Notes under the pieces: model-generated | Databases searched by the model: none | Seen by the model: the letters and a program-made list of their open reading frames with translations, nothing else | Told to the model about the DNA's origin: nothing | Made by a program: the position numbers and the translations under genes | Assembly: GCA_964469925.1 (NCBI GenBank) | Contig: CAYXZL010000003.1 | Location: 40,448-104,447, forward strand | Source: an uncultured Candidatus Peribacteria bacterium | Lineage (GTDB): Bacteria > Patescibacteriota > Gracilibacteria > Absconditabacterales > Absconditicoccaceae | Reading direction: 5' to 3' | Length of the DNA stretch: 64,000 nucleotides | Part shown: positions 9,349-57,340 of the stretch, piece after piece | How positions within the stretch are numbered: position 1 is the first letter of the stretch | Layout of the letters: every line of letters begins with the position of its first letter

Positions 9349-9936
9349 CTAGAAAGTAGTAAACGATTGAAAAGGGAGGAGTCTCAACGATGCTTTCCCA
9401 ATAATGTTTTGAGCGGGTACCAGATAGGGAGTGTCCTCATTACATCACGCACCAAAACAACAACGTGAGTCTGTGCTTCCAGGTCTATTGTCTCCAAAGA
9501 CCACAAAGCTATTGGGTTTTACGTCAAAAACCGTGACATCACACATTGCGGTCGTTTTGATACCCTCATCCAGATAGGGTTCGTCAAGCTTGCGACAGTG
9601 GTCTGGGTCTGTTTTTTGATAGTCGCAAATATATACCTCTTGGTTTTCTAGCTTGACAGTTTCGCCAGGTAAACCAATAATCCTTTTTATAAAGGCGTTT
9701 TGATTAATGGTTGGAACAAAGACGACGATGTCTCCTCTTTGATATCCATGAAATCTAGGTGTAACTTTATCAACTATGAGTATGTCGTTTTCATGAATTG
9801 TGCTTGCCATACTCGACCCAACGACAGTGAAGGGATTAAATATAAAAAACCTAATAAAAAGGACAATACCACCTATAAATACCAAAAAGCTAACAATGTC
9901 AAATATCTCCCAAATCAACATCTTCAAAAATCTCAT
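9349..9936 (-). CDS. lepB: signal peptidase I, 195 aa
   Basis: GSSMASTI (catalytic Ser box), KRIIGLPGE and GDNRPGSTDSR boxes. Reads through TGA at 9445 into NIIGKA. Stop at 9349-9351. Confidence 0.9.
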
Positions 9937-10072: not shown

Positions 10073-10504
10073 CTAGAATGGTATATCATCATCCTCTGCG
10101 GGAGAATTAACATCTTCGCCATTGGAACTATCATGATGCATTAAGCTATCGTCATCTCCACCTTCATCAGGACCTTTAGAGTCCAAAAAGATAAAGTTGT
10201 CGACAATGATCTCCGTTGAATGCTTTTCAACCCCATTGCCATCTTCCCATTTCCTCGTCCTCAATCTGCCCTCAATGTACAGTCTTTTGCCTTTGTGGAG
10301 ATATTGACCCAATACATCTGCTCCTTTCCCATAGGCAACGCACCTATGATATTCAGCCTCTTCCATCAGATTACCTTCCTTGTTTCTGTACTTCCTATTG
10401 GTAGCGATGACAAAATTAGCCACGGACGTTCCTGTACTCTCGATAGTCTTGATTTGAAGATTGGTTGTGGCTCTTCCAATAATCATTACCTTATTAAGAT
10501 CCAT
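10073..10504 (-). CDS. ssb: single-stranded DNA-binding protein, 143 aa
   Basis: MDLNKVMIIGRATTNLQIKT...ANFVIATNR...HRCVAYGKGADV forms an OB fold, and the acidic tail ends DDDIPF. Confidence 0.9.
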   Translation of the reverse strand: MDLNKVMIIGRATTNLQIKTIESTGTSVANFVIATNRKYRNKEGNLMEEAEYHRCVAYGKGADVLGQYLHKGKRLYIEGRLRTRKWEDGNGVEKHSTEIIVDNFIFLDSKGPDEGGDDDSLMHHDSSNGEDVNSPAEDDDIPF

Positions 10505-10685
10505 GTATCCAAATAACATGATAAAATTCACATAGTCGAGCAAATACTCGAAAAAAAAGTAGTATTTTATACAATGAATGCAATTGATTTTCGCTAAGAC
10601 ATCCCTATAGTGCTGGACATGCATTGCAAAAAAGTCACAATAGGCTTTTAGCTAATGAGCAGAAAAAGCATACGAAAGTCCCTTT

Positions 10686-10771
10686 GCCTGGGTGGCGAAA
10701 CTGGTAGACGCGTCAGACTCAAAATCTGATGACCTTTGGTTGTGAGGGTTCGAGTCCCTCCCCAGGCACCA
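10686..10771 (+). tRNA. tRNA-Leu (anticodon CAA), type II with long variable arm, CCA encoded
   Basis: Acceptor GCCTGGG/CCCAGGC. Anticodon stem TCAGA/TCTGA with loop CTCAAAA. T arm GAGGG-TTCGAGT-CCCTC. 3-prime ACCA. Confidence 0.9.
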
Positions 10772-10851: not shown

Positions 10852-11964
10852 CTACGTATGGCGTGCTGTTCTTTTCTTAGAATGTATGGTTTTGGGAGAG
10901 GTATTGATGCGTCTAATAGAGAAAAAAAGATTAACAAGCACCAAAAGAACAATCACACTGAGGGCTGCCCATACGGGAAACATAAAAAATGAAGCTGACT
11001 GCACCAGTGTTTCTAAATCTTCGGAGACTCAAGTGACTCATCCAATAGGATGATGTGTTAGTGCTAGATCGGCAAAGAAGTATCACTTATATCGAGGGAA
11101 AGCATCAAGGGAGAAGGTGATATTTTCTTGGTGTTGATTCATGATAATTTTGCTTTGCTTATAGACTCACACAACATATCACAGTGTATTTTTTATGGTG
11201 AGAGTAGCATCTACGTTTTCATCCAAATCTCAGTGATTATTGAGTCATACAACTATGGCAACCGATCACATGGGAGTTCTATGAGCATAGAGGAGAGGAT
11301 TGTTACTGATGTTTTCTCAACGAGGAACGTTGAGCGGCTCTATGATACTAAGTGTCGAGTTTGTCGGTCATTCTACCATAACGTCAATAAAATGCCCTTT
11401 GCGTACAACAACATTAAACTGGCCTGTCGAAGTATCAGAATATCAGGGATTGAGAGAAAATACTAAACATCAATGGTAGATACCCACAGCTGATGGAGGC
11501 AATGAGAGAGTGGCATGGGTAGTAATAGTTTCATTGGGACCAATAGAAAAAGTATCGGCATATCCACTGACGTACTGTCAAAACCTATCAGTAAATTCGT
11601 TGCTCTTACAGGATTTTTTCTGAAGAGAGTCTACAGTATATGCACCATCAACAAATCACATCACAACCGTGGCGGGTTTGTCATTGTTGTTATACAAAGA
11701 AAGACAGATGTCCAAAGGCTCGCCAGGTTTGACACTCGTAGTTAGACGGTCTTCTTGGTTTGCTGTATTATTCGGATTACAAAACTTCAGTTGAACATTA
11801 GTTAAGTCAGCAGTTATACCCATTGGATCATCAATGGGTGCGGGTGGCTGTACGGTGGAGGTTGTATCGGCTAAAGCTATTCAAGAGAAACAAAAAAACG
11901 CTAAGGAAAACAATCACAATAAGACGGAAGAAGGAAATAGCAAAGCTAGACGAAGTTTGATCAT
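10852..11964 (-). CDS. secreted, C-terminally membrane-anchored surface protein, CscA-like (DUF916/DUF3324-like architecture), paralog 4 of 4, 370 aa
   Basis: Signal peptide, conserved Cys pair, then GFVDG, KSCKSNEFTDRFGQYV, GCL, FNVVVRKGHFIDV and RYKG motifs and a C-terminal TM helix. Open frame across about 20 TGA to TAG at 10852-10854. Confidence 0.65.
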
Positions 11965-12036
11965 GCCACATAGCAAAATAAACGACTAAACCCACGTATA
12001 ATGATCACGAAAACAAATACAAGAAACAGTAGTTTC

Positions 12037-13377
12037 TTACTGGTTTGCTGGTCCTAGAGAGTCGACACTATTGTGCATATTCTGTCATCACTGTAGCTGG
12101 TTTTGGCCGAGAAAAGTTGGTTGATTTCAGCCTCAGGCACTTTGTGGCTGATGAGAATCCGGAGGCACTTGTGAGTCAGCAAATGACTGTTGAAATCAAG
12201 ATGGACCAAAAGCTCACGCAGTATTTCAAGGAAACATCATGTTCTGAGGGAAAGAGTTCATTCAGTTTTTTTGCCTTTTTTTATGTCTCCAGATGATAAC
12301 CACAAAGAGAACAAAGATGATGGCGATCAGCCATCGCCCAATACTGACACGTTTAGCTGTAGGCGTGTAACGGACAGGTTCAAGTTTTATTGTCTGTTTT
12401 TGTTTCATATCTTCCGTTACAAACTCGGACTCGAAATTATAGCTTGGTGTATGGTCAACACTAGCCGAGATACTCATCAATCACTTGTACCACGGAAAGC
12501 TTGGTATTTCAAACTGAACGTCTTGTTTACCTCAGGCTTCTACTCTCATTTCTTTTGTTTGCTGCATGATTTCTCTTCAAAGTATTCAGTGCAGACGGAT
12601 TGTGGTTGTGGTTTGCTGATCGACTTGTCCAGTATTGTTAAGTCATAAAGAAAGTAAAAGTTTACCCGAATCAACGGGGCGAAGAAAGAAGGGAGGGGCA
12701 CTAAGGAGGTTGGTTGTCTGGTCAAAGCCACTTGGTACACCAACACTAAAACCAGCCTCAAGTTGTCCATCGACAATTGCATCAATAAACTTTGCTTTAC
12801 GCAAGACAATATCAAACAATCATGTTGGTTTTTGTTGTGCGTTGGGAACAAATACTTCCACTGCTAAACATCACAAAAGATGCCCCACATAGTCATCAGG
12901 CAAACGGAGAGTCGCCTGTTGTTTAACACTCGAACGTGGCGGTATCGTCACTAACTTATCGTACTTGCTAACATACTGACCAAACTTATCAACAAACTCA
13001 TTACTCTTGCATGATCTCTTGCGCGTCGAATCGATAGTAATAGCTCCGTCTACAAAGTGAGTTTTGACTGCGATAGGACTCTTACTAGAATTGGTGAGGT
13101 TATAACATAGAGAGCGTGCAGCTCATTTTTCTAGTGTATAAGTAATGCCGTTGGTATTGCTCTCCACATCATCTGCACCTAAATCACAAAACTCTATATC
13201 GACAAAACCAAGAAGACTAACACCAGTATCATTGTCCTTGGGATTCTCTTCTTGTCCGTATCCAATGAGGGGAGAAAACGCTAGTATGCAGACAAGCATA
13301 GTGCGTATAAATATGGTGTTCACTGACTGGAGCTGCATAAGAAAGGCGACGTAGAGTAAAGGTGCGAAATCTATCAT
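12037..13377 (-). CDS. CscA-like surface protein paralog 3 of 4, 446 aa, with Q/P/G-rich cytoplasmic tail
   Basis: Fragments 13123..13377 and 12262..12480 are in the same frame. Motifs HFVDG, RSCKSNEFVDKFGQYV, FDIVLRKAKFIDA and PWYKG, then a TM helix and a low-complexity tail ending at TAA 12037-12039. Confidence 0.65.
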
Positions 13378-14720
13378 CAGATAGGAGTATTGGGATCCTG
13401 GAAACCACTAACTCATCATGGGGTCATGGGTGGGGTGTTTCATAATTGCGAGTTAGTTAGATTGTTGTTGATGGGTTGATTAACAATCGGTTGTGCAGAT
13501 TGAGCCATCTGAGGATTAGTTTGGATCGACAGGTTAGTAGGTTGTATGGTGTTAGGGGGGGGTTGCATCATCTGATTAGCCACATTAGGAAGAAATCATC
13601 AGGGGTACATTCAAGGCTGTTGCATACGGTATTGCTGAGCATACATATTTTGATACATCTGCTGCATCTGTTCCATCATGGCCTGTCTTTTTTTCCTATG
13701 TCTCTTTATCAAGAGAATCATCGTCCTCCGAAGTGCAACCAAGACCAACAATGCAGCCACTATCCACCAAGGGAAGATGAAAATAGAGGTTGCAAAATGC
13801 ACGCTCTGCGTTTTTCTCATCTCAGGAGTTATTTGTTCACTATCAAAAAGAAAGTTCGGCGTATAGTCAGCGGAAACACTGATGTCAAAACTCCCCTTGT
13901 ACCACGGTAGTACAGCAGAAAAGGCAGCGATAGTGCTTTCTTTTCATTGAACATATTTGATTTGCGGAGTGAACTCGATCGGCTTGCCGAAAAGCGGTTT
14001 GATCTCACCCTTCAAGAGTACGTCTTGCGCTACATTGCCTTTATTGTCCAACTGCAAAGAAACGACGATTTCATCATTGGCTGTTTTTTTGACGTGCAGT
14101 TGCTTATTGTTAGAGATGCTTCACTCATCTTCAGGTTTAGAGACTTCAAGACCAATCACTAAATCTCACTTGACAAAAACATCAATAAATCTCGTACGCC
14201 CAACGACCACATCAAACATTCATCATGCCTGTTTATCAATTACATTGTACATCAAACATCCCATAACCTGCCCTACATATCATAGGGGAAAAGAAAGTTT
14301 GGATGTGACTTTTTGGCTTTCTCAAGCTCATAGCGACAGAGTGTCGCTATTGGGTTGGACATACTGACCAAAAAGATCTTTTTTGGCAGCAGAGTGACAC
14401 ACCCTAGAACCATTAGAGAGTCATCCGTCAACAAAATTAACTTTCACGTCTAAGGGCTCACTGTAGGTATTAGTGACCTGGTAACAGAGGTTTACAGAGC
14501 TGTTTTCGTTGAGTTCCAAATAGATTTTTTTATCTTTCTTCGACCCAGTAGTATCATCACATTCGAAAAAATCTACTTTGATATATTGTAAAAACGTCCC
14601 ATATTCAGCATGGCTTACAAGAGGCCTAAAAAAGACGAGTGAAGCAATAACTGATAACAAAAAAAGTTGTGCCGACCTCTGCCGATAATGCGTAGAAGAA
14701 TATGGTTTATGTTTCTTCAT
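13371..14720 (-). CDS. CscA-like surface protein paralog 2 of 4, 449 aa, with Q/P/M/N-rich tail
   Basis: Fragments 14421..14801 and 13611..13820 are in the same frame. Motifs NFVDG, FDVVVGRTRFIDV and PWYKG, then a TM helix. TAG at 13371-13373 overlaps the next gene start. Start taken at the internal MKKHK (14720). Confidence 0.65.
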
Positions 14721-15855
14721 GGGCTTTTGTCTTGATAAAGTTCTTTCTGCTGTGGGTTCTGGTCTTTCTTCATTTGAGATAGTGAAACCACGCATGTACA
14801 TTATATAAGATAATAATCAATAAAGCAAAAAAATAGATCATCCGTGGAAATGAAAAGAATTGTTTGTGAAAAGGGAAACGTAATCGGGGCTGTCAAGTCA
14901 AGTTTTTGAGGGATAAATCGAGCGAGGAATCGTTGAGATAGAGAGAATAACGTCAGAACGATAAAAGGTTGATAGGCAGTTGGTGGCTAATAACAACAGA
15001 GGATTGCGGGGGAAGATCGTAGTCACCAGAAAAGTGTACTATTGTGCCAAAAGAAGACAGGGCTCATGAGCTTACAAACACAAAAGAAGAGTTTCAGGTA
15101 TTGATGACCATATATTGTAAAAGAAAAGAGCGGGGATTTAGTTTTGAAAGATGATAAAAGGAGTTCTTCAAAAGATTTTTCGCAGGCAAATTGTGAGGAA
15201 AAAGCATTGGATTGATAACAGATGTGTTGGTATCAAAAATAAGAGAGAATGGTCTAACCCTAACAAGATTGACGGTAAATAATCACATACGTTGTTTGGG
15301 ACGGTGAGGTGGCACATATTCTCAGGCACGAATACAGCCCTCCACGTGTTCTATGTCTGCAAAGGTTTGAGGCTGTATATGAAAAAAAAACTGCTGGTAA
15401 CTATGCCCACTGACCAACACTAAAGCAGTGTTTCAAGAAGCAAGTAAACTATTATGGTTGAAAATGGAGTAGTCATGGTCAAAGCCGGCTGCGTGTGAGC
15501 ATTGTCACGGCAAGAGGTCTCATCAGTCTTGGGAGGCTCCGCTACTGTAATAACTGCCCAATGAGAGCAATACAAGCACTGGAGCCTGATCCTTGTTGTT
15601 TATTCACAAACAGAGTATCATAGGAAGGCCTGCTTGATAGGTTTTGCGATAAGGTGCAACAATTCCGTACTGATCCTTGTTGTTACAGAAGTCGATCGAT
15701 ACATGGGAAAAGTCAGCAAGATTGCCCGTATAGGTAGGAGAGGCATAGTATGATGCAGCTCAAGAATCAACAAAAGACGCTCGAAGAGGGAGAGAGTAAA
15801 ATAAACCAAGTACAGTGAAAACCAAGCCACAAACCCTGGATATATTATTTCTCAT
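14707..15855 (-). CDS. CscA-like surface protein paralog 1 of 4 (most divergent), 382 aa
   Basis: Signal peptide MRNNISRVCGLVFTVLGLFYSLPLRA, a Cys-containing N-terminal domain and a C-terminal TM helix (MIYFFALLIIILY). Open to TAA 14707-14709, overlapping the next start by 14 nt. Confidence 0.55.
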
Positions 15856-15924
15856 AGAGAAAAACCACCAATTATCTTCTAAAGCCCAAACCAGGATATA
15901 TAAAAGCAAAAAAGAATGCAAAAG

Positions 15925-15948
15925 AAAGGAGGCTCTAACGCCTCCTTT
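15925..15948 (-). terminator. intrinsic terminator after the WxL-like gene
   Basis: AAAGGAGGC-6 nt-GCCTCCTTT perfect 9-bp stem, followed on the minus strand by CTTTTGCATTCTTTTTTGCTTTT. Confidence 0.7.
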
Positions 15949-15991
15949 CGTATACAATTGCGTAACTTTTGATACATAGATTGTCTACAAC

Positions 15992-16624
15992 CTAGAATGA
16001 GACAGTAATCGTTCCGCGGTAGGTGTCTGGTACAACTCAACCAGGTATGTCGAGAGCGACACCAGGAACCAATCTCCATGTTCCGATAGCATTATCAGCA
16101 GCATTATAGGTTCTCGTAAGAACTGCTTGTGATTGGGTAGCTAAGAACGCTGTAGAGGAGAACGCTTCCGCTGTAACATAATCAGAGTCTGAACCATCTA
16201 CCTGAGTAAGGTTGGCACTGGTATCGTCGTTACCAGCAGCTTGTGTGATTTTCATCTCCACATCACCATTTCCATTACCGTCTACGACAGAATCGTTACT
16301 CGCAGCAGGAGTCAAAACCTTTCCTTGACTAGCTCCACTGAGTGCATCAAAGGCAAGAGAAACCTGCCAGATTGTACCAGTGCTACCACAGCTACCCTGT
16401 GTGTCTGTAACAGTGATACCATTACCCCATGATCCAGGAAGGTCGGTTTGTTCGGTTAGACTGGTTTGACTAGTACCGAAGTCGAGATCGGCGACGGTGA
16501 CTTGAAGGTTTCATGAACCACAGTCAATACCTAAAGTAGCATCAGATGTTGCTCCGTTGACATAAGACACAACACCACAGACACCAAGTGCGAGCAAAGA
16601 AATTGCCCCAAGAGTTTTCTTCAT
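15992..16624 (-). CDS. WxL-domain-like secreted surface protein, 210 aa
   Basis: Signal peptide MKKTLGAISLLALGVCGVV. ITVTDTQGSCGSTGTIWQVSL (first WxL-like block) and GTWRLVPGVALDIPGGVVPDTYRGTITVSF (C-terminal WxL block). Confidence 0.7.
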
Positions 16625-16771
16625 GATAGTAAGAGTATAGAGTAAATAAAACAATTTACCACAACCTGATATGCAAAGTATGCAGTGTGACACGGTATTG
16701 CATAGCGTTAGGTTTCACTATGACATACAAGAGTATAGGAAACACATAAACAGATGTCAAATTTTTTACTA

Positions 16772-17434
16772 CTATCACTCATTAATATACAAAAACATAT
16801 CTCATTGATAAGAACCAATTGGAATATAAGGAGGAATCTCCAATATAATGTCTGGGACAAACTCCCACTGACCAATACCAGCATCCAACTCGTCAGCAGC
16901 TCTTGAGATGAGTGGTAACGATTGGTCTCCTATGACAGTTTGGTTGTCATATCAGCGGACTTTAACTGACCATGTGCTCGGTCATGCAAGTTGTGTGAGT
17001 TGAGAGCTCTCCAAGGCAGATCACGAAGAGGTGTGAATGCTGATTGTAACATTGATGACGTCGCCAACTCATGCGTAGTCAGCAACCCCAGTGACGTAGA
17101 GGTACTGTGTTCAACTGGAGGCATACATGTTTCCAAATCATATAGAAATATCCCAGATGTCTCCATCTTCATCAATATCTTCATTACAATTGGACTTCGT
17201 ATCACTGATCACGATACCACTACCTTCAGCACTATTGAGCCAATATCAAGACAAGATGAGGTTTTCACTATAGGAGTTGACAACAGTACCAAAGGTGACA
17301 TCGTGAGCAATTACGCTAATGGCTCAGTCTTCACATGAAACAGTGAGGTTACTGGTACTGATTGCTCAATACACAAAATATCAGAGCAGAAACCAAACAA
17401 AAAGAGCAAGCGATCAGAGTAACTTAGGAGACAT
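16772..17434 (-). CDS. WxL-domain-like secreted surface protein 2, 220 aa
   Basis: Signal/TM region, then GIVISDTKSN and C-terminal GQWEFVPDIILEIPPYIPIGSYQGDMFLYI. Frame verified against off-frame ORF 16930..17205. TAG at 16772-16774. Confidence 0.6.
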
Positions 17435-17567
17435 CAAGGTGCATGACAAAAGATATGAAACAACGACAAAACACATACGTTCTAATCATATACGACTAGA
17501 AAATCAATTACAAAAAAGCACCCAGACAGTATTGTCCAGGTGCATGATTAGTACGTGCCAATGATAC

Positions 17568-17870
17568 CTATCAGTTACTCAAGTCATTGTCCACCAATTG
17601 TAGGTGTTCTCTATAGCTTGTAATAAGATTTATGCAAGACTCTTCTCTAACGGAGTCTTCACAATACCGTTGAGCCGATCACGGTGCTGGTGTATAAGAT
17701 GCACCTGAACGCAGTATTGATGTTCATGCAATAAATCATACGATCCATGCCGCACCGACTGCAATAGACTTCCACAGTCAAACTTTGAGAGCGACAACAA
17801 AAGCTGCCAACGAGGAAACGCCTAGTGGACTATGCCAAAACGACTGATAGGGTGTCTTCCCAAAAGACAT
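17568..17870 (-). CDS. small membrane protein, 100 aa, first gene of the surface cluster
   Basis: ATG to TAG frame with hydrophobic segments (LAAFVVALKVGLWKSIAVGAAWIVGFIAG). No homology recognised. Confidence 0.35.
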
Positions 17871-18055
17871 GGGTTAGCGTATTGGCTAAAAGCATGAACT
17901 CGGCACTGAAATTGTAAGTTGCATGCAATAGTATTATAGATCAAAAATACAATCTGTCAAATAACTAGGGGCGATCTTTTTTGTCTTTCGCTGCTTTTAT
18001 GACTATACTTAGTGACACCAAGAGGTGTTTTGTACTTAATGCATGGTGATGTGTG

Positions 18056-21000
18056 ATGGCGGTAGGACCCAAAAGTAACGCTAACAGCAACCAAAACGAT
18101 CAATACCAAGAACAGAGCATGAGATTAGATTCTGAGGTTTTTTCTATACTACAAAGGTCCTACATAGACTTTCTAAAAAAGGAAAAACTTGATCGGACAA
18201 CAATGAAGAGACACCAAGATTACGTAGAAAAGTTTTTTGAATATATAAAAAAGTGATGAAACAAGGAATTGTTGAGCCTAGCAAATAAAAAAACGCTCAA
18301 CGCCTTTTTTTCTGCAATAGAAGAAAGATGAATAAAGGCAGTAGACTTGCTGGGAGACAACAACGCTAGTATCTCAAAACGTATAAAACCAGCCAATAGT
18401 GAAAAAGTTGGTTTAGAGAGAATGCTGAAAAAAATCTATGAAGAAACGGCTGATGTGACAGTTTGAGACGATAATGCTTTCAAAAAATTCGCTGTAAAAC
18501 ATTGACTAAACTTCAAGGAGGCTACCGGTCTCTGTAGTATCGATAAAAACTCAAACATACAATCGATAGCATCATTAAAAAAAGAACGAAGAAAATTCGC
18601 CAGCTGATTGCCAGACAAAGTGAGACAAAGAGTAAAAAAAAACGTATTCAAGCATACAGCTACAATGTTCTATGACCAGACTGAAAAAATGGCTGCCACA
18701 GCTCTATTGCTGAAATATCGTAGGGTAATAAAAAGCCAAAACTCCAAGGAGTTGCTAGAGGATTTTGATAGAGAGTTTCCTATACCTTTGCCAATTTACA
18801 ATAAAAACTCCTATGGCTGAGACGAATATGAGCAAACCAACAGTCTGCCAGAAATTAGGTGAAGATGGGCTAACTTTCTAAACGAAAGTGCTAGGAATAA
18901 TGCCGATACCATAGTACAAGAAATCAGCGACATAAGAATAACAAATAGTGACGTAGTTGAGGCGTACAAGGACTTCGGATGAGCAGAAAATGACGAGTTT
19001 GACGGTCTAGATAGCAAGAACGTGAATAAATGGTCGACTCAAACCAGGATCATGTTCAATAAGCTGGTGGCAGAGCAGTTTATAGCAGACTATGAAAAGA
19101 GTAAAGATTTTGTCGACCAAGGTCTTAAGACAGTCGCTTCAGCTATTGCTGACACACCACCGACCTTTAATCAGTTGTTCAAAAAGTACAAAACAAGCAG
19201 AGAGGAGTTGATAAGCTTTGATCCTTCTCTGGAAGAAAAACTAAAGAACAAAGATCAGTGTATTGAAGATTTGCAAAAAGAAAGGGATAGTGAGCAGGCA
19301 GATCATAACAAAAACTATGCCAAACTAATTAATGAAGAAAGGCAAAAACAGCAAGAGGATCTGATGCAAGCTTTTTTTGTTCAAGTGAGACAAGATGATG
19401 ATGAGTTAGGCAGAATCCTAGAAATAGCTTATGATAATAACTTCAACTTGGCAAAATTAGACCACAAGCAACAACAATACCTCATCCGCCAGTTGTGTAG
19501 CATCACATTAGATGATGTGAAAGTACAAGAAATAGTAGTGAAGATGGGTATTGATCCAGACTGATTAGAAAAATTCAGTACAGAATTATTTGATCTAAAC
19601 AGCAATGCCATAACTATCCCGATGGGCGATCAAAGCATACCGATCGAATTTACAAAAAAAGGTTTTTTGCCAACCAGCATACACAAAAGCAACGTGGACC
19701 TAGAAAAAATGAAAGAACGAAGACATTTGGGTTTCAATCTATCTATCAAGGTAACTCCTGAAAACGAAAAATACCTCCAGTCACTATACAGAAAGTCACC
19801 CTTTCTGTTTAGAAAATTCGGTACAAAGGAATCATCACCCACTATCAGCGAGTGATACAAGGTTAGAATAAGCAGAAACGGTGAGTCGTATGTGGGGTAT
19901 CTGTCATTGAGATGAAAGGAGATAGAAAATGAAAAAGATCAGACCAAAATGGAGCGACATTTGTATAGTAAGCCAGTCAATCAATATGAAACGGAGAGGG
20001 AACTGGCCTACGGTAAGCCCATACCAGATGATGAGGCTCATGAGCGAGACGTGGATATCCTAGAAAAAACCGTACATCTCAACGGAGATGCTATAGGAGG
20101 GTTAATATTGGGTCACATAGCAGGCGAGGCTACAAAAACTAAAGATTTGAATACAGATACAAAGGATGTGTCAAACCGAGCAGAAGACTGAAGTTTTGCA
20201 AACACATATCGTGATACCTTAGAGCAGCAAGCACTTGAAGAAGATAAGTGGGCAGTTGAACAAAAAAACAAATTGGAGTCCGAAGAGGATGCGAAAAGAA
20301 ATTTAGAAAAAGCACGAAACGAAATCCAGCCACGCAACAAAAAGGTAGCATTGGAAAAGGGAACGAGTTTGCGAGTACAGGAGTGAGAGTCCGAGATTTT
20401 TCAGCCCTTCATCGATCAAGGTTTTGGGGAGTGATGATACTGGCATTGTTTTGAGATAACGGACATAGATACAAGCAAAAACACAATTACATTTAGAAGG
20501 CATGGTTGAGAACAGAAACATAGTCAGGAGTGAACAATAACGATGCCTCTGAAGCCAGAAACGTTTGAAAAGTTCCGCAGTAGCTACGGGATAAATCTCT
20601 ATAAGACCCCTAAAGTAAAAGCTAGAGAAGAATGATTTTTTGGTCAAATAAGGTATCTGGAGGAGGCGGCCATCCCCAATGTGTCTGATAATCTTAAGGT
20701 CATTGGAGGACAAGTAAAGTTTAATGGAAGCAGGTTTTCGACGTCTCATAGTGGAGAAAGCCTTGAAACGCAGTATTTCTGAGCGATGGCAGACAATCCT
20801 GAAACAGGGAAACCAACTATCATAACATTCAAAGTCGAGCCATGATCCGACGGCAAAATCAAAGTGTCTGGCTGAGAGTTGGTGAAAAGATGAGACAGGG
20901 GAGAGATACTCCAACGCTACAAATATAATAAAGATATGGATTATACAAGCTTTCTCCTGTTTATAGGAGAGCACAAGCTTAGCCCGTTGACCGATGATCA

Positions 21001-23308
21001 AATCAATGCCTTCAAATTACAACAAAAAGAAGCATATGGTGCAATTGATGATGGTGATCTATCGAACAAAAAACTAGAGTTTTTTTCCTTGTCAGATTTT
21101 GGTTGATTTTTTAAGTGACGATATAGTAAGTTTACTGATAAGCGAAAGGAGTATAATGAAGAGAGATTAGATATGTTGACCGATTTGATGGTGACCGATC
21201 GAAGGTTATATCAGAAAATGTCTAATACGCTGTGATTCTGGTGAAATTGGAGAAGTACGTGGTCCAAGATAGATTATGACGTGAGATTGGAAAAGGCTGG
21301 GAAAATTATGGCGAAGATTACTGCACGGAGAGATAGATACGCCAAAGAGCCAGATAGAAGCCCTGTGGCAGCAGAGATACTCAAGATGGTGTTAAAATGA
21401 CCCTTTCCAAACACGGAACGCCTTTACCAAGTAGCGGGTGCATTCCTCTATATGATGGAGAAGGCAGGCGGTATGTATGTGAGAGCGTTTGCCCCATATG
21501 CATGACAGGGCTTGCGGGTCAGAGCACTGTTGTGAGACGCACACCGATCGAAGTACAAAAGACAATTGGCAGATCTAGAAGCAAAACTAAAGGCCGATCC
21601 CACTAATGAAGATTTACGTGCACAGATACAGCAGTCAGAGGCATTATATTTGAATATAGCGATTGATTGAGCAGATGAGGTCCTAAAGTTCAGATTCTGA
21701 ATAGACTTCGCCGATGCTATCATGCCAGCCTATCAGTGATCGTTGGGTACTGAAAAAATAAACTCAACAGCAAATGCACTAACAGGGATGGCACAATTTT
21801 GATATATCTTTGACCAAAAATTTAGAGCAGAACTCCAAAAAGGACAAACCGCTAAAGCTTTGGCCTGACTCAAAGCGGCTGCCTCACTAGCAACCCGTAG
21901 CTATGAAGTAGAGAAAATAAAAGGTGGGATTCTGTTGGTGCTACTGTCGGGAGTAAATATGTATGGAGGAGATAGTGAATCAATCAACTTTCTGGTGCAG
22001 TTTTCGAGAAAGATATGATTTTTGCCAGGTATGCGAATGGAAGACTTCAATTGTCAGACCAAAACCGCTAGACTCCTCCACATGATCACAGGAGACTTTT
22101 ATGTAGAGACTGGGTATAAAATAGAGAATTTTGCGGCAAGCAATTATGGCCTATGAATGAAAAATACGAAATGATGATATACGGCTGCATTTATGAGGCG
22201 GTGGAATACTGCGAAGCTAGGAGACACGAAAAGTCGTGGCAGTAACATAACAGATTTTTTGGATATGAAAAGCTTGGCATGAGACCATAGTTTGCTGTGA
22301 GGCACCATAAATGGTAGACAGCTATCCTACGAGGATAGGAAATTGGTACAAGAACTGATAGGCTTTAGTTTCAACGACTCAACCAGCACCATTACTGACC
22401 TGAACAACAAAGAGTTCTATAGAAATCCGATGACGGTACCTAAGACGGTCGCACAACAGTTCATGAATTTTAGGGGCACAGACTTTGCTGGTGATGATAA
22501 TCAAAAAGAAAGTGCTCAAATATTTTGGCGTTCATTTGCGGATGCAATACCAGTCGATACGATCAATGATGATCAGTTCAAGACAACAACACGCTTTATT
22601 ATGAAAAAGTTCGCGGACACAATTGGGTCCAAGTACTTCACAGGAAGTAACGAAAACGACCTTATCAGAGCACTAGGTGTAGTAAGGAACATCGGAAGAG
22701 ACAAGGACATAGCAAACAAGAGGGCTGAGATAGATTTTCTCCTCCATGCTATCATTACAATGAACTTACAATCAGCCTATCAAGGTATTCCGAACGAAAT
22801 TGATGCGGTCGGTGAAAAATTCAAAAGATTTCTTGAAAATAATATTGCCAATATTGACGGTGATGTGATAGAAGAAACATTTTGACCAAACAAGAGGGAT
22901 ATGTTTGATAATCCGTGAGATTATGTCGCATGACTCGGCTTTGACAAAAGAGAAATTGACAAAAAGGTGAAGGAAAGGACAGATGCGGGTGAGACCAAAC
23001 CCTTGTTTAATCAGAGATTGCGAAATATCCATAGAGGTATGATGACCAGATGACAGGGATTGGACTTCGAGTATCAAAAAATCATGAACAAATACGATGT
23101 TTCGTGAAAAGAAAAAGAAACTCAAGAAACGGCAAAAACGAAAGTGCAGGCATTAGGAGAAAAGAAAAAGTTCGTAGCAATCAAAAACCCAGATGGATAC
23201 GATCAAGACAACAAGAGTTCTCCGTGAGATCCAAATCCATCTGCAGGCATTGGAACAGGACAATACGATTATGACGAACCAGCTTGGGTATGACAGCAAG
23301 AATACTAA
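18056..23308 (+). CDS. giant hypothetical protein, about 1750 aa, K/E/D-rich
   Basis: Six listed fragments (18053, 18608, 19022, 19622, 19949, 22343) share frame 2. I read 20189-22343 codon by codon and found only TGA interruptions. TAA at 23306-23308. Start ambiguous (ATG 18056, GTG 18053 or ATG 17999). Confidence 0.75.
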
Positions 23309-48603: not shown

Positions 48604-48909
48604 TTATATTCAATAATGCTTTTTTAGGTCTGACTTTCGAGAGTCGGGAAGTACTGTTAGAAAATCAGTCCCATAAAGTTCTAATGCAATATCAGCAACA
48701 AGGAAAGAGAGTTCATAGAGGGGCGATGATGTATCCTGAGGAAGATCTCGTCATCATCCCACACTCGTGAGAAACTGGTCCTCTCTAGAATCTTTCGGGC
48801 TTGAGGACAATCGCAGCATCAAACGATCTCTACATCAAAAGTCTCAGGGAATATCGCTACTGAGCTGAGCAAGTCTGTCGAGATACCCTTGCTGGTTAAG
48901 GCTAGTCAT
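48604..48909 (-). CDS. hypothetical protein, 101 aa, start overlapping the giant-ORF stop (ATGACTAG)
   Basis: ATG at 48907-48909 overlaps TAG 48902-48904 of the upstream gene. Frame open with sense TGA to TAA near 48604. Composition only moderately protein-like. The alternative is a 5-prime leader of the VIT gene. Confidence 0.3.
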
Positions 48910-51900
48910 TCGTATTTCAAGTAGCTAAAGTATCATTTACCCTAGAAGGATCATGAGAAGATTCTCATCAACCTTGGTCGCTATCGCGGACTCATCAAGT
49001 ACCTGTTCTTGCTTGGGAAATCGCCTGAGCGACGGGTGGCATCATATGTTCAAGCATATTATTTGCACTGATAAAAATTGCAAGGTGAGACAGAGAGTCG
49101 CCAGACGTAGCAATATGTTGGTACAGAGCAATACGGTCAAGTATATAAAGATATTGACTTTCGTATTTGTCGATCTGATCCGGATAATTATGAATATCAG
49201 AGAGTAATCTTTGGAGACTGGCCATCTCAAAGGCCTGTATATCAAGAATTTGAGCTGGTGTTTTGGTGCCAAGATTGATCAGGTCGTAGGAATAGAGTTC
49301 TGCAAGTTTAGCATAGGCGTCGGCATCTATTTGCTGTCTCTTGAGCTTAAAGCCTTCGACATGATGTCTCACATCCTCTCTGACTTGGGGGTACGCGTTA
49401 AGTGCATCGTTAATATAGCTATTACGTTGGTCTTGATCATGGTTTTGTTTACCAGCAACGATGGCATCTAAGTATCAAACAAATCCATCAACCGTAAGGT
49501 CAGGCCTAAGCATCCCTATTTTGAGCATCCTTCCTCAGGCCTTGTGATATTTCCCTGGCTTCATCACTCAGCGATCATAAGCTGATACGGTAGTAGTATG
49601 ATAGAGTTCAGCGATAAGATTGATGCCGTAGTAGTCAGCTTGTGCTCATTTTTCCAAAAATCTAACAGGCCTATCTCATCACATATCAATATCATAGGTT
49701 GCTGCACCCATAGCCTCACCAGCTAGTGCCGTGCCTTGATCAACAAAAAAGATCTCGAAAGCATAGGGAACAGGTCAGACTTGATAACGTCCTGTGATCT
49801 TTAAGTGTTGATAGCCAGGTTCACGAGAAAGTTCTCAAACAATAAGTTCTAGCTCACCAGCTTGTGGGGGTGGCGTAATAGTCCTGAGAACCCTACCATT
49901 CACATCGGTAATATCAAGTGTTTGAAAATCTGTATCATGAGCTAGATCATGAAGTGCATTCGGAAAGTCGCTAGCTGGAATGCTTGGCTCAACATCTTCA
50001 GGGATAGTATTGTGTTCCGTTCACATAAACAGTGCAGAGCTACCACAGAATACAATATCTTTCACAGACGAAAGAGTGTTGGTAAGTTTTTGTACGGTTG
50101 TATGCCATGCAGTATAATAGTCTGAAGCACTATAGCGGCTGTCTGCATGTGCTGGTAGTCTGAGTGATGCTGGGTTGTTGTTTTTTTGTGCGTAGTGATA
50201 GCCAACATACTGTCACACCAACAACAGATCATTGATATGCGACTGAATAAGACGAACACGTCCAGGATTATTGTCCGTTTTAGCTTGTTCTAGGTCAGCA
50301 TAAAGCTTTTCCAATAATTTCTTTATATGTTCTACTGGAGGAAGCTCAGAATCAAAAAGTTTGAAACTAGCCGCAATAGCAAGAACCCTCTGCAAAATAG
50401 GGTTATCAAGAAGGGACTTCCTAAGATCATGCTCTCGATTAGCGATAGCCTCACGATGTTGGTTGAGAATAGGGAGAATCTCTGCAATTTTGTCCGTAAT
50501 GCGAGTATACAATTCTGATCATGCTAACAAGAGACTGTTGTTTTGTACAAGTGCAATGTTTCCATCAGCAAAGGTAGTGAGCTTGAGATGTTGTTCTTGC
50601 AAAAATGCTTGTAGTGATGTTATTTTGTCAGACAAAAACTGTGAAATATGGTCAAGCCCATCAGACGCCCTGCCGGCGATGCTTTTGAGTAATTGAGGAG
50701 TTTTAGTCACGCCTTCCATAATACCTCCATACAGGATCGTAGAGGATACGACCTGACCAAGGTTTTCTGGTGAGAAGTTGAGTTGCGTAGCTTCTCGAGC
50801 TGCCTGAAACGCATCGCTAATACGTCGTGCTTGATAGCGAAGTTTATTATCAGCACCGCCATCCAAAGGGGGTTCTGATGAAGATGGAGCGTTGAGGGCT
50901 GTTGATCACACAACAGGTTGTGCGTCGGTTCCCACAAAAGTGTTGATCCCCGTCCTCATGACATTAAATGCAGGATCGATCAGGAGGGACTCCCACACAA
51001 GCTCTTGCATGCCAAAACGTAATCATTGAGAAAAAACGTTGCTGCTACCACTCAAAACAGGTGGCATGACTTTGCTTAATCCCAGTGTTGCCCTATGAAC
51101 TATGATATCGCCAGCCAAGTCAAGTACGATTTTGTCCGCTCCATAAGCATTCCCTTGCTGATCAAAGAAGCCGGTAGCATTCATAGCAATATTCCAGACA
51201 TCGTCTGGTGACTTTCCTTCAGCTACAGCACCCAAAAATCAACCAGCAGTAGCTCACAGTCTCGATCAAATAGTAAAGGAAGCAGACGCAACCCAGGGGT
51301 TCTTAGTAACGACAAGAGTAGCAGCAAAAACCAGTGATCATCCCACCAAAGAGCCAATCTGCTGTCCTACTTCGGACCGCCTTCCCTGCTTCCATGCATC
51401 GATAGTTTTTTCGACTCCATCACTGAATTGCTCTCCAAAGCCATCTCTCACGATATCATCAGGGTTTGATCCTTTGGAAAAATCAAGCTTTGTCCCAGTG
51501 AGAGGATTAATAATCACTTGTCTTTGGCTAACACATGAGGGGGGTGGTGAAGCACTGAGGAGAAGTTTGACATAGTCCACATTCATAAAGTAGAGCAACC
51601 TTTCGTTCTGATGATAGTAGTCAGCATAAGCACTTTGTCTTGCTTGTTCATACATTCCTGCTCTGAAAGCCCTTTCCCCAGGCTCTCCTGCGGGACCAAA
51701 GCTCATCTCGGCCTGTTTAACTCTGTCAGGGTAGGCAGCATCACCTTTTGCCTTAAACTCAGCTATTTTTTTATCTCGCTGACTAATGGTGTCAAAGAAC
51801 GAGCTAATGCTTCTGAGGTCAACGTTGTGAAGCTGGAGTTGTTGTAAGGCCTCCATGCGTTGCTGGATATCGCCGTTTTGACTAAGAAATTGCTGTCCAA

Positions 51901-52984
51901 TACGAGTCTCTCTCATGAGAGATAAAAGAGTTTTCCCATCAGATGTCTGCGTAAGTTGAGTTTCATCAAACCAAAACGCCTCGCTGCCCTTGATGGCTTT
52001 TTTGTAAGGACCAAGACGAGTCAGAATGTAGGTCTGCAGCAATGGTCAACAAAATGATGTCGATTCATATTTTTTAGCAATAGTGAGGAGGGAAGAATGA
52101 GGAGCCCGTTTTTCAACAGCAGCAGCGAATTGCTGATCATTGAGACGCATAGTACCCAAATAGAGTTCCAAACTATCACGTGCTATACTGTCAATTGGGA
52201 AACGGGAACGTCCTTGAGAAATAGAAATATATTTGTTTTTGAGGTCTTGGAAATATTGACCGATCTTTTTCATCCTCTCCATATGCAATACGCAATCCTG
52301 GAGGGTATGGTGCGTCATACCTTCTCACTTGTAGTTTTTGTAATCAGGGAAGACGTAAAGATAATGAACAAAGAACACCTGTAAGTTGCGTACAACATAA
52401 GGTAGATAGTCCTGTTTGACAGTAGCACGTGGCAAAAGTCTCGCTATGTCGTCAACACGAAGAGTCGTCCGAGATTCTTTCGTGGGGAATTGTTTGAGAA
52501 TAACGCTCCAATTTGGTACAGTGTCCAAAGATATTCCCATGATTTCAAGGTTTTTCTCGGGAGGAACGGTAGTGGCGACCAATAACTCATCACGATAGTG
52601 CTTGTTAGAGTTTTGTAGTTCGAAGGAGTTAAGGTGTTGGCGAAAGGCGGAGAATTGTTCATACAGGTGGAGTTCATGATCCAGGAGAGGTAAGCCACCA
52701 TCTCAGCGACTAACAATAGACAAAAATTGTTCAGCAAAAGCACGAGATGTTTCATCGAGGCTATCGCAGGTGGCGGGGTTGGAATAGCTATCAAGTAGCT
52801 GTGACAGAGCTTCAAAAAAAGAATGAGCAACATCTCCTGCTTGCTCAATTTCTCATGGGAGTACCGCCAACTCGTGCGGTTCATCCAAGAGTCCCTTTTG
52901 TAGTCACTGCAAAAGCTCATTGTATGAGACAATGTTTTGATCTTCTTGTTGATTCAGTTGTCTAATCTGATCAATAGTGTTCAT
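48902..52984 (-). CDS. giant hypothetical protein, about 1360 aa
   Basis: Seven listed fragments (52325, 52046, 51338, 51023, 50519, 50213, 48995) share one frame, and I read the gaps without TAA/TAG. Central Gly/Ala-rich hydrophobic segment. Start at MNTIDQIRQ (52984). TAG at 48902-48904. Confidence 0.7.
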
Positions 52985-53264
52985 CGAGTCAATCGAGTAA
53001 ACGATTTGCATCATCTTCATCATGAATACGCTCCTGTTCCTCTTGTACGTGGATCTGCTTGATCGTATCGAGTTGCTGCTGCAATGCGTGTTGCATTTTT
53101 TTATTAGCAAGACGGCCAACAGCTGCATTGATCGGCTTCAATACAATATCGAGCATACTGTCAGGGAGATCGTAGTTTTCTACCACGATCAAAAGTGCAT
53201 CTGCACTGTCCCAATACGGTTGCAGCTTAGTCAAAACACGTATAAGTAAGTCCTTTTTGTTCAT
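52962..53264 (-). CDS. hypothetical protein, 100 aa, 3-prime end overlapping the giant ORF start by 23 nt
   Basis: ORF 52989..53264 extends 8 codons past TGA to TAG at 52962-52964. Helical, acidic C-terminus. Confidence 0.5.
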
Positions 53265-53470
53265 GGCTCACATCCAAATGAAGCCACGATAATCATACTG
53301 ACATCTAGCACAAAAAATGAGATACGAGGCTTCCTCAAAGGATCATGTATTGACAGAGGGAGGTTTTGACATGAGCATATGAATGGTGTAGAAAACATGT
53401 CGTTTTTTTGCAATCAAAAAGAGCGGGGACTATAATAGTACTACTTATAGATTTACCTGCTACAGAGCCG

Positions 53471-56400: not shown

Positions 56401-57340
56401 AAATGTTGACGGTCAGGGGGATATCTGTCAAGACGATCAGGACGGCGATGGCATAAAAGATGCCAATGATAATTGCCCAACAATTCAAAATATGCTACAA
56501 ACAGACGCAGATCAAGACGGTTTCGGTGATGACTGCGATATCGATAAAGACAACGATGGAATAGATAATCAAAACGACAACTGTCCATGGGTAGTAAACC
56601 CAGACCAAATCGACGAAAACATCAATAAAATCTGAGATGCTTGTGAGGGAGACGACGATTGAGACGGGATAGAAAATGACGTGGATAATTGTCCAATGGC
56701 CTATAATACGGGACAGGTCGATCAAGATTTTGATGAAATAGGAGATATCTGTGACGGTGATAGTGATGGAGACTGACTGGAAAATGGCTTTGATAACTGC
56801 CCTAGTATAGCAAACACAGACCAAATTGATATTGATGAGGATGGTGTAGGAGACGTTTGTGATGATACGATCTATGGTACGGGAGTAGTCAGACTATTGG
56901 ATTATGACATTATATTCGGTACGATAAAAACGAGCAAAACAGCTCAAATTATGAGTGGTCATGTAGCTGGTGATGGACTGATAAAGGTGCAAGATACAGC
57001 AGGAACCAAGCCTCGGTATGTGACGATCGAATTTACCGATATTGTCAATAAAACATACGGTAACAAGATAGATGCCGATAATTGTTTTTATAGAGTGAAT
57101 CCAGATGCTGAAGTGGTGGCGGTAGAAGACTTCTATCCATTACAAGTCTCCAATCATGGTGGAGAGATTGCTCTAGGAGAGCCAGTACAGCTGTTCCATA
57201 GAGATGTGTTGAACGGGCAAAAAGGAACAATGGGTATAGGAACAGCCAGCGGAGCAATCGATATCCGATGCAATATACCACCATTTTTGAAACCATGAGA
57301 GTACGAGTGAGACATTGTTCTCACCCTCATAAGAGACTAA
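53471..57340 (+). CDS. secreted thrombospondin type-3 (calcium-binding) repeat protein, 1289 aa
   Basis: Signal peptide [23 protein letters not shown] and a 180-aa N-domain. About 26 units of DxDxDGxxDxxDNCPxxxNxxQxDxDxDGxGDxCD follow, then a 150-aa non-repeat C-domain. Six listed fragments are in the same frame. Confidence 0.85.
54020..56870 (+). repeat. in-frame tandem array of about 26 degenerate ~108-nt TSP3 repeat units (approximate bounds)
   Basis: The GAYAAYTGYCC (DNCP) core recurs with a regular period. The repeats generate the many spurious antisense ORFs listed at 54455..56824. Confidence 0.8.

Follow-up and report, generated by a model that had tools for sequence, protein, structure and literature searches.

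A gene cluster for cell-surface proteins in an Absconditabacteria-type bacterium from the candidate phyla radiation (CPR) probably is a very divergent homologue of the WxL/Csc surface display system of Firmicutes. The cluster lies at positions 10852-17870 of a 64,000-nucleotide stretch of contig CAYXZL010000003.1, assigned to an uncultured Candidatus Peribacteria bacterium; we refer to this whole stretch as the window. It encodes two secreted proteins (W1 and W2) that resemble WxL proteins, four membrane-anchored proteins (P1 to P4) that resemble the Firmicute WxL partner WxLIP, and a small protein, S. The original prediction, made from the letters of the window and its open reading frames (ORFs), had read the locus as Csc/WxL-type. 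This reading is supported by the fold match of P2, by profile–profile comparison of both families, by hidden Markov models (HMMs) built from CPR sequences only, and by the adjacency of W and P genes in related genomes.

When TGA is read as glycine, seven consecutive co-oriented genes occupy the minus strand in the order S-W2-W1-P4-P3-P2-P1, as had been predicted, and this order is kept in a relative that is about 80% identical. Synteny of the six larger genes extends across the related loci L003-L006. W2 (16772-17434, 220 amino acids) and W1 (15992-16624, 210 amino acids) are small WxL-like secreted proteins, each consisting of a leader and then the domain only. The WxLIP-like genes comprise P4 (14707-15855, 382 amino acids), a highly divergent paralogue with a leader, four cysteines, a C-terminal transmembrane (TM) segment and a basic tail; P3 (13371-14720, 449 amino acids); P2 (12037-13377, with a start at 13338 or 13377); and P1 (10852-11964, 370 amino acids). 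All features of the cluster given below are on the minus strand. A hydrophobic N-terminal leader is present on all six larger proteins, and P1-P4 each have a strongly hydrophobic C-terminal TM segment followed by a basic stretch.

P proteins resemble WxLIP

The P genes had been described as four tandem paralogues with a common set of motifs. This description is clear for P1-P3, which are 24-32% identical to one another by BLAST (E=1e-26 to 1e-46), whereas P4 was only marginally similar to them (E about 1e-4 to 0.01). Comparison of P4 with the P1-3 family by hhalign gave 95.5% (E=1.4e-08, 206 columns), and P4 keeps the four-cysteine spacing of P1-P3 as well as the TM segment and basic tail. Judged by the profile comparison and the cysteine spacing, P4 is a very divergent fourth paralogue. 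The leader and C-terminal TM segment are common to all four proteins, but the motifs FVDG, FGQYV, F(D/N)(I/V)V..R..FID and PWYKG occur in P1-P3 only, P4 having none of them, and KSCKSNEF occurs in P1 and P2 only. The conserved cysteines of the ectodomain number four, not the pair first described.

Searches with curated families gave sub-threshold matches. The Pfam family PF06030 (WxLIP_PGBD, formerly DUF916), which has a gathering threshold of 27.3 bits, matched P2 at 21.3 bits (E=0.0003, profile positions 22-120 of 121), P3 at 15.1 bits (E=0.025) and P1 at 14.0 bits (E=0.053), the matches of P1-P3 spanning profile positions about 20-120; for P4, W1 and W2 the Pfam scan gave no match of any kind. 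Among 17 P-family members collected by profile search, PF06030 was the only recurrent Pfam family (7/17, best E=4e-06). An NCBIfam scan of the cluster proteins returned nothing relevant. The original prediction had proposed to be judged by WxL, DUF916 and DUF3324 profiles, and by that test the outcome was ambiguous: PF06030 stayed below threshold for P1-P3, and neither PF11797 (DUF3324/HBD) nor PF13731 (WxL) matched. We therefore turned to deeper fold and profile–profile tests.

An AlphaFold model of P2 (pLDDT 71) has beta-sandwich domains at residues about 59-212 and 231-337, a TM helix at 344-374 and a disordered tail. In a Foldseek search with this model, the top three of 1,783 PDB matches were chains of the Enterococcus faecium WxLIP (9i25_C and 9i1y_B/A; E=3e-11 to 1e-9). 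Of these, 9i25_C is WxLIP 'bound to long WxL'.

Profile–profile comparison extended this likeness to the family. As references, we used six Firmicute plasmid WxL loci (from Bacillus, Lactiplantibacillus, Melissococcus, Lactococcus, E. mundtii and Terribacillus), which had been retrieved with a genuine E. faecalis WxL query. Two further loci, L026 (Listeria) and L027 (E. faecalis), had been reached through a weak match to a CPR sequence, and the comparisons were for this reason repeated on the six independent loci. The CPR P family aligned with the six genuine 'DUF916 and DUF3324' proteins at 98.2% in hhalign (E=2.7e-14) over 256 columns that cover both domains, the alignment spanning template columns 3-279 of 357 and running through the second domain. 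The P1-3 family of the window gave 97.8% against WxLIP (E=1.2e-12, 217 columns). By contrast, cross-controls that paired W with WxLIP or P with WxL gave at most 3.9%, and W against WxLIP at most 1.3%. The HMM built from CPR P sequences only was similarly specific: among the 109 ORFs of the six loci it found only annotated 'DUF916 and DUF3324' genes (29.6, 26.0 and 22.1 bits), and among the 43 ORFs of L026 and L027 only the Listeria and E. faecalis WxLIPs. In a word-indexed protein search, P2 had just 3 relatives and W1 matched nothing but itself; a GTDB scan with a P-family pattern returned nothing. Together, the sequence profiles and the modelled fold support a WxLIP-like assignment of the P family.

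Two kinds of variation within the family deserve mention. Low-complexity tails follow the TM segment in P2 (84 residues, G/Q/P-rich, 12037-12288) and in P3 (111 residues, Q/N/P/M-rich, 13371-13727), and the tails of the orthologues are 74 and 131 residues long. Some CPR loci carry shortened or lengthened P proteins. In a 557-residue variant (L008, 5430-7103) the first domain alone is recognizable, and variants of 243-278 residues (L011, 6393-7127; L025, 10188-10916) cover the first domain only. These first-domain-only variants echo the isolated PGBD-only proteins of Firmicutes.

W proteins resemble small WxL proteins

W1 and W2 are paralogues (29% identity, E=1e-24). An exhaustive phmmer search with W1 against 1.84 billion representatives gave 3 matches only, so the W1/W2 subfamily is extremely narrow. 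An HMM of W1 and W2 weakly matched small ORFs beside distant P genes and the C termini of giant proteins, and hhalign joined the W1/W2 family to the CPR W-like family at 94.5% (E=8e-08, 152 columns). These CPR relatives have the pattern F.V.D.KG...GYYTT ... Y.GTLTYTLYEN.

The likeness to WxL proteins was seen most readily in the wider family. PF13731, which has a gathering threshold of 25 bits, did not match W1 or W2 even at E<=5, and five CPR W relatives gave collinear sub-threshold matches across profile positions 45-211 of 214, with best scores of 19.7, 19.4 and 18.1 bits (E=9e-4 to 2.8e-3). The 25-member CPR W family, including W1 and W2, aligned with seven genuine small WxL proteins at 96.4% in hhalign (E=1e-09, 186 columns), and a subset of six CPR sequences without any sequence from the window gave 95.1%. 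Using the HMM built from CPR W sequences only, we found the Terribacillus WxL protein at 44.7 bits (E=8e-14); the other matches among the 109 ORFs were annotated WxL genes and one large immunoglobulin (Ig)-like protein of a WxL cluster. When PDB chains were searched by sequence and by profile, neither WxL nor WxLIP came up, and the sole result was a closing motif general to beta-sandwiches, in GH123 enzymes; a tblastn search of plasmids with one W-like member found nothing relevant.

The alignments allowed us to place the WxL motifs in W1. An N-terminal strand block, LQVTVADLDFGTSQTSLTEQT (16445-16507), aligns by hhalign with the WxL block 'L.L..V..FDFG....T..Q.Y', and W1 LQVTVADLDFGT is the aligned counterpart of the WxL N-terminal strand. 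The motif-1 block, ITVTDTQGSCGSTGTIWQVSLAF (16349-16417), aligns with V.D.RG...GW.L of genuine WxL proteins. Here ITVTD..G..TIWQVSL is motif 1, in which W86 corresponds to the first WxL tryptophan, in the form W-x-V, and the stretch from the Asp to the Trp carries an inserted loop with a cysteine. The C-terminal block LDIPGGVVPDTYRGTITVSF (15995-16054) represents motif 2 in degenerate form, where V208 takes the position of Trp and F210 that of Leu, and its YRGTITVSF aligns with motif 2 (Y...LTW.L). In W2, the motif-1 block IVISD..GDIWDISIGF lies at 17135-17215 and the C-terminal block at 16775-16843. The prediction had rested on WxL-like C-terminal strings, GTWRLVPG...YRGTITVSF in W1 and GQWEFVPD...SYQGDMFLYI in W2. 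Both strings are present, but the block IGTWRLVPG (16061-16087) corresponds to the Firmicute G.GTW.D.F block, and GTWRLVP is neither of the two named WxL motifs.

Across the family, the Asp of motif 1 is invariant (25/25 CPR W members), and the motif-1 aromatic is Y, W or F, mostly Tyr, with W-Q-V in W1 and W-D-I in W2. The two motifs are 93-103 residues apart in CPR W proteins and 96-104 in genuine small WxL proteins; in the W1/W2 subfamily, the inserted loop shifts the Asp to 12 residues before the Trp (8 before the first Trp in WxL) and the spacing is 120-122. The W module is always at the extreme C terminus, and it is present both in small proteins (leader and domain) and in giant ones (693-2,791 amino acids). 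These comparisons support the view that the W family is WxL-like.

W and P genes are neighbours across an Absconditabacteria-type clade

Scanning the species representatives of GTDB with the W-like alignment yielded 13 loci, which belong to Absconditabacteria/SR1, to metagenome-assembled genomes (MAGs) labelled 'Peribacteria' or to MAGs that carry no label beyond (uncultured) bacterium; a complete SR1 genome (CP006913.1) contains one of them. In 8 of these 13 loci (L015, L017, L018, L019 and L022-L025), a P gene is adjacent in the order 'large W then P', and one further locus, L020, has P together with a small W. The order at L015 is a small W of 198 amino acids, a giant W of 2,352 amino acids and P. 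Loci found with P as the query (L008, L010 and L011) showed the reciprocal arrangement, with W beside P. Adhesin-type domains such as Laminin_G_3, Big_5, cadherin-like and TSP3 are found in the large W-proteins. The original prediction knew of no reason to expect a Csc/WxL architecture in Gracilibacteria; the architecture is supported, but it is spread across the Absconditabacteria-type clade and is not confined to this genome.

The window contains a large W-protein of its own, encoded at 53345-57340 on the plus strand. It is about 1,290-1,331 amino acids long and consists of a leader, 26 thrombospondin type-3 (calcium-binding) repeats (TSP_3, E=3.5e-241) and a C-terminal W module, which the W-like HMM matched at E=2.2e-08. 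This protein is a candidate 'large WxL' partner. A 1,414-amino-acid ORF (48902-53146, minus strand) adjoins its gene divergently.

The host uses a twice-reassigned genetic code

Under the standard bacterial code (table 11), the cluster region is broken into short ORFs. Reading through TGA raised the total of ORFs of at least 100 amino acids in the window from 9,420 to 38,210 amino acids and the longest ORF from 267 to 1,775 amino acids. In alignments with the orthologous locus L003, which is about 80% identical, TGA stands opposite GGN codons. CGA and CGG stand almost exclusively opposite TGG or each other and never opposite AGA or AGG, with a single CGA:CGT pair; over about 21 kb, CGA:TGG was counted 12 times and CGG:TGG 8 times. 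Usage is also balanced, at 72 per 10,000 codons for CGA and CGG together and 70 for TGG. Examples of reassigned CGA/CGG sites in the window are codon 291 of P1 and codon 68 of S.

A code with UGA as Gly and CGA/CGG as Trp has been described for Absconditabacteria (Shulgina & Eddy 2021, PMC8629427). By the codon pairing and usage given above, the host reads UGA as Gly and CGA/CGG as Trp, which is the Absconditabacteria-type code at an advanced stage and not plain code 25, and this code points to an Absconditabacteria-type lineage for the host. The translations behind the original prediction, which placed the organism in Gracilibacteria, used plain code 25 and overlooked the reassignment of CGA and CGG, which is evident from their pairing with TGG in L003 and from a usage equal to that of TGG. 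Because CGA and CGG encode Trp here, plain table 25 mistranslates these sites as Arg. For the same reason PRYKG, as P1 reads under plain code 25, becomes PWYKG, and after this correction the motif is invariant in P1-P3 and in a distant homologue.

In the public gene calls, these CPR proteins have Trp at TGA codons (code 4), where Gly would be correct, and Arg at CGA/CGG. The spurious Trp and Arg residues weaken homology searches and structure prediction, and mistranslation in public collections may contribute to the 'hypothetical' status of these proteins. Some of our own searches and models took public-collection sequences as input and thus carry TGA-as-Trp errors. Once TGA is no longer a stop, many antisense ORFs of 100-250 amino acids also arise on both strands throughout the window. 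Several of them look 'conserved' against the orthologue, with a ratio of nonsynonymous to synonymous divergence (dN/dS) >1. The long antisense ORFs are shadows of real genes, and where recoded genomes are annotated from their ORFs they could be misleading.

Conservation and possible expression signals within the cluster

Identity to the orthologues is 94% for W1, 85% for W2, 75% for P1, 76% for P2, 71% for P3 and 57% for P4. Likewise, dN is lowest in W1 (0.04) and highest in P4 (0.32), making P4 the fastest-evolving gene of the cluster. With dN at 0.04-0.32 and dS saturated, all cluster genes are under purifying selection.

Overlaps at the junctions of P genes had been taken to indicate translational coupling. 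The 14-nucleotide overlap of P4 and P3 (14707-14720) is real and is kept in the orthologue L003. The overlap of P3 and P2 (13371-13377), on the other hand, depends on the choice of start: it exists only with the ATG at 13377, which is the start in public gene calls, and it is not conserved, whereas the ortholog-consistent start at 13338 leaves a gap between P3 and P2. P4-P3(-P2-P1) look like one operon.

Possible signals for separate expression were found around W1. A promoter-like site (11/12) lies at 16732-16760, upstream of W1, and a terminator-like hairpin with a T-run lies at 15924-15949, between W1 and P4. Another promoter-like site, TTGACA-16-TATAAT, matches the sigma-70 consensus at 12/12 positions and lies upstream of S (17933-17960), and a terminator-like hairpin with an 11-bp stem and a T-run, conserved in sequence in L003, separates S from W2 (17518-17543). 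These sites are pattern matches only, and promoter-like sites were no more numerous than in shuffled sequences. TGA makes up 2 of the 26 Gly codons of W1 (8%), compared with 43-64% in W2 and P1-P4, and W1 has no CGA or CGG codon. The avoidance of TGA and the very low dN, together with the flanking promoter- and hairpin-like sites, suggest high and separate expression of W1. One possible explanation for its avoidance of reassigned codons is that it may reflect selection for translational accuracy or speed.

S (17568-17870, 100 amino acids) has an N-terminal pair of hydrophobic segments and two cysteines. The small membrane protein that had been counted as part of the cluster is a conserved ORF with two hydrophobic segments: it is conserved in L003 at 80/96 residues, with mostly third-position changes and one CGG-to-TGG swap, although it is uncalled in public annotation. 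Its membership in the system is uncertain, because S is absent from the distant CPR W/P loci; it also had no Pfam match. S was ruled out as a counterpart of the LPXTG protein CscD on the grounds that it lacks an LPXTG motif and is missing from distant loci.

On the other side of S, a 1,775-amino-acid ORF (17981-23308, plus strand) diverges from the cluster, shows 84% identity to its counterpart at the orthologous locus and has no obvious signal peptide. We considered this neighbour as a large WxL partner and rejected it, since a W module, a leader and any Pfam match are all lacking. Immediately downstream of P1 are tRNA-Leu(CAA) (10686-10771, plus strand), SSB (10073-10624, minus strand) and a type I signal peptidase (9349-9936, minus strand; Peptidase_S26, E=8e-37). 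Their order is kept in the orthologous loci, and the peptidase may be linked to the secreted proteins of the cluster.

Comparison with Firmicute WxL clusters

Firmicutes account for more than 91% of known WxL proteins (PMC9772566), and there the typical triad is small WxL, large WxL and WxLIP (PMC9772566, PMC10599100). The Firmicute WxLIP is TM-anchored, its first domain binds and stabilizes the WxL domain, and the complex is located on peptidoglycan (PMC10599100; title of PDB 9i25). A WxL cluster has been defined by at least one WxLIP and at least two WxL genes within 4 genes (Hassan et al. 2023, PMC10599100), and the contiguous, co-oriented W2, W1, P4, P3, P2 and P1 form such a cluster if the homologies are granted. 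Firmicute clusters have also been described as having one small and one large WxL each, often with an LPXTG protein (PMC9772566). The cluster in the window departs from that description, with no adjacent large W and with an S that is not an LPXTG protein.

We compared the cluster with Firmicute WxL/Csc clusters (E. faecium loci A-C, E. faecalis Elr, L. plantarum csc and Listeria; PMC1534035, PMC9772566, PMC10599100), using L026 and L028-L033 as examples. The component set is the same: small proteins with nothing but a leader and the domain, large proteins carrying the domain at their end, and a neighbouring membrane partner with two Ig-like domains. Both also have co-oriented genes that encode secreted or membrane-bound products. 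Unlike the Firmicute clusters, that of the window is in a CPR host recoded at UGA and CGA/CGG and not in Bacilli, and its sequences stay below every curated family threshold. It has four WxLIP paralogues where Firmicute clusters usually have one; with two small W, four P, no adjacent large W and no LPXTG protein, it is a derived form.

At the protein level, P shares with WxLIP (PDB 9i25 and 9i1y) the leader, the two beta-sandwiches, a TM segment at about 316-339 (310-346 in genuine WxLIPs) and local blocks such as (L/V)(T/M)N(S/N)S..I.V and P..G.(F/Y). P differs in having four conserved ectodomain cysteines, compared with 0-1 in genuine WxLIPs, and Q/N/P/G-rich cytoplasmic tails of up to 84-131 residues, compared with 8-22. 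FVDG, FGQYV and PWYKG are clade-specific signatures of P not seen in WxLIP, and the second domain of WxLIP belongs to PF11797, which does not detect that of the CPR P proteins. W shares with small WxL proteins (PF13731) the N-terminal 'L.L..V..FDFG', the motif-1 'V.D.(R/K)G...G-aromatic' with its invariant Asp, the 'G.GTW' block, the C-terminal 'Y.G.(L/I).aromatic.L' strand, the spacing of about 100 residues and the C-terminal position of the domain. By contrast, W has lost the Trp of motif 2 and, in most members, that of motif 1; W1 and W2 keep the latter as W-x-V and W-x-I, with a cysteine loop inserted.

Alternative explanations

Several of our results weigh against homology with the WxL/Csc system. 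None of the cluster proteins passed a curated Pfam or NCBIfam threshold, and PF11797 was never matched in the 17+4 P proteins scanned with Pfam. The TM-scores of P2 against WxLIP in Foldseek were low (0.26/0.41), and generic tandem-Ig proteins followed close behind. P4 had no direct similarity to WxLIP by hhalign and is linked to it through the P family only. The WxLIP motif NQIDKxxxYFDLK is absent, the aligned segment of P1-P3 being '(V/I).(I/L).F C(D/N)'. For the W proteins, the aromatic position of motif 2 is Y, F, L or V and never Trp in 25/25 CPR members (V in W1, L in W2), and the closing-strand pattern of the C terminus is found also in unrelated beta-sandwiches, for example GH123 N-domains. 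An AlphaFold model of W1 built from 3 sequences had a pLDDT of 41 and gave an uninformative Foldseek search. W1 and W2 alone matched WxL weakly in hhalign (37.8%, E=3.4e-4 at full length; 83% over the C-terminal 46 columns), and as this direct match is weak, their placement rests on transitivity through the CPR W family. Lastly, no large W-protein is adjacent to the cluster, since the sole one in the window, at 53345-57340, is 36 kb away and has no P gene beside it.

If these failures are taken at face value, P and W could be lineage-specific surface proteins of Ig-like or beta-sandwich fold whose likeness to a WxL cluster arose by chance or convergence. Such a reading would fit the failure of all curated-threshold tests, the missing canonical Trp and NQIDK motifs, and profile searches of PDB sequences that found no WxL or WxLIP, beta-sandwich folds being common. 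However, coincidence would have to account for two independent family matches (96-98%) that are full-length and collinear, with null cross-controls and with loci chosen without CPR reference. It would also have to account for the Terribacillus WxL at 44.7 bits against an HMM that contains only CPR sequences, for the agreement in motif order, invariant Asp and motif spacing, and for a three-part gene neighbourhood that recurs; we regard it as very improbable. A recent transfer from Firmicutes was ruled out, given the lack of significant pairwise similarity, the richness of the genes in reassigned codons and the spread of the system through the clade. The fold of P2 raises another option, in which P proteins are chaperones of the chaperone–usher kind and W proteins are pilin-like subunits that polymerize through their C-terminal Y.G.I.V.F strand by donor-strand exchange into a fibre. 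In the Foldseek search, the P2 model also matched the chaperones CsuC and CFA/I (E about 2e-7 to 4.5e-7), the C-terminal strand motif of W is like the closing strands of beta-sandwich subunits, and insertion of a strand between WxLIP and WxL has already been proposed (PMC10599100). CsuC-CsuA/B and similar pairs thus share with P and W a two-Ig-domain protein, a beta-sandwich partner and possibly strand insertion. But the WxLIP structures ranked about 4 orders of magnitude above the chaperones, whose fold matches are much weaker; the profile–profile comparison was specific for WxLIP and WxL, with null controls and no sequence-profile relation to chaperone–usher pairs; and no Pfam pilin or chaperone family was matched. 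In addition, P is an integral membrane protein, permanently anchored, there is no usher, and the envelope is expected to be monoderm, and we find assembly of this kind hard to credit.

A different question is what the display system holds. W1, and W2 with it, could be abundant wall-associated subunits of a lattice or coat that P holds in place; the same molecular parts would then serve mainly to build the cell's own envelope, S-layer-like, and not to make contact with a host. This would suit the flanking promoter- and terminator-like sites of W1 and its TGA share of 8% against 43-64%, its position as the most conserved gene of the cluster (dN 0.04) and the lack of an adjacent large adhesin gene in the window. 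In most related loci, however, P directly follows a giant adhesin-domain protein (Laminin_G_3, Big_5, cadherin-like or TSP3) that ends in W, an arrangement that argues for display of large extended proteins, and no repeat or lattice-forming feature was identified in W1. We therefore consider a mainly structural coat unlikely, although less so than either chance likeness or fibre assembly, and we continue to favour a divergent WxL/Csc display system.

Proposed function and implications

Absconditabacteria are obligate epibionts or predators. The proposed display system would work as follows in such a cell. P1-P4 would each consist of a signal peptide, two Ig-like beta-sandwiches that are counterparts of DUF916/PGBD and DUF3324/HBD, a TM helix and a cytoplasmic tail, and W1 and W2 would be of the 'small WxL' type, with a signal peptide and then the domain only. 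By analogy with Firmicutes, the membrane-anchored P proteins may reach across the zone of the wall and bind secreted partners by their WxL-like domain; these partners would be the small W proteins and, in this clade, giant adhesin-like proteins that end in a W module. Captured proteins would be held non-covalently at the peptidoglycan-containing surface. Gene structure, homology, architecture and conserved adjacency are what our analysis shows; binding of W to P, for which the adjacency of their genes is the evidence, association with the wall and a part in host contact are inferred. The usual unit in related genomes is a giant W-protein followed by P, and here P has expanded to four copies beside two small W. 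W1, if expressed separately and strongly, may be an abundant structural partner.

Absconditabacteria encode peptidoglycan synthesis, and the fibrous surface of these cells has been ascribed to giant proteins believed to serve in attachment to the host (PMC8080830). This combination of peptidoglycan synthesis with a fibrous surface of giant proteins makes attachment to a host or prey cell the most plausible role of the system, which would build an adhesive or fibrous surface; the role is suggested by the lifestyle of those Absconditabacteria that have been cultivated or observed, and a mainly structural W1 coat is the chief alternative. We put forward a broader proposal more tentatively, as a possibility that we rate well below the homology itself. 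In this proposal, CPR epibionts and predators with a recoded UGA (Absconditabacteria and their relatives) would use the W/P module as the general wall tether for the giant adhesins that make up their fibrous coat, and the module would be an old heritage in common with monoderm Firmicutes and not a recent transfer. In this genome the four diverged P paralogues, of which two have cytoplasmic tails that are long and disordered, would together make a heteromeric platform for docking, one that selects the W-tagged proteins to be displayed and couples the surface to the cytoplasm.

In the literature that we searched, we found no paper linking WxL or DUF916 with CPR/Patescibacteria, and 'hypothetical protein' is the sole public name of these CPR proteins. 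So far, WxL clusters have been regarded as a special feature of gut bacteria of the low-GC Gram-positive kind. Recoding combined with extreme divergence kept the W and P families below standard annotation thresholds, an example of how recoding hides homology. No anchoring mechanism was described for the giant surface proteins of Absconditabacteria (PMC8080830); a giant protein with a terminal WxL-like module, followed by a WxLIP-like membrane anchor, would provide a concrete and testable mechanism for tethering adhesins. The W module could also serve as a sequence tag for finding the displayed surface proteome of uncultivated Absconditabacteria, and the system would add one more monoderm-type envelope system to those common to CPR bacteria and Firmicutes.

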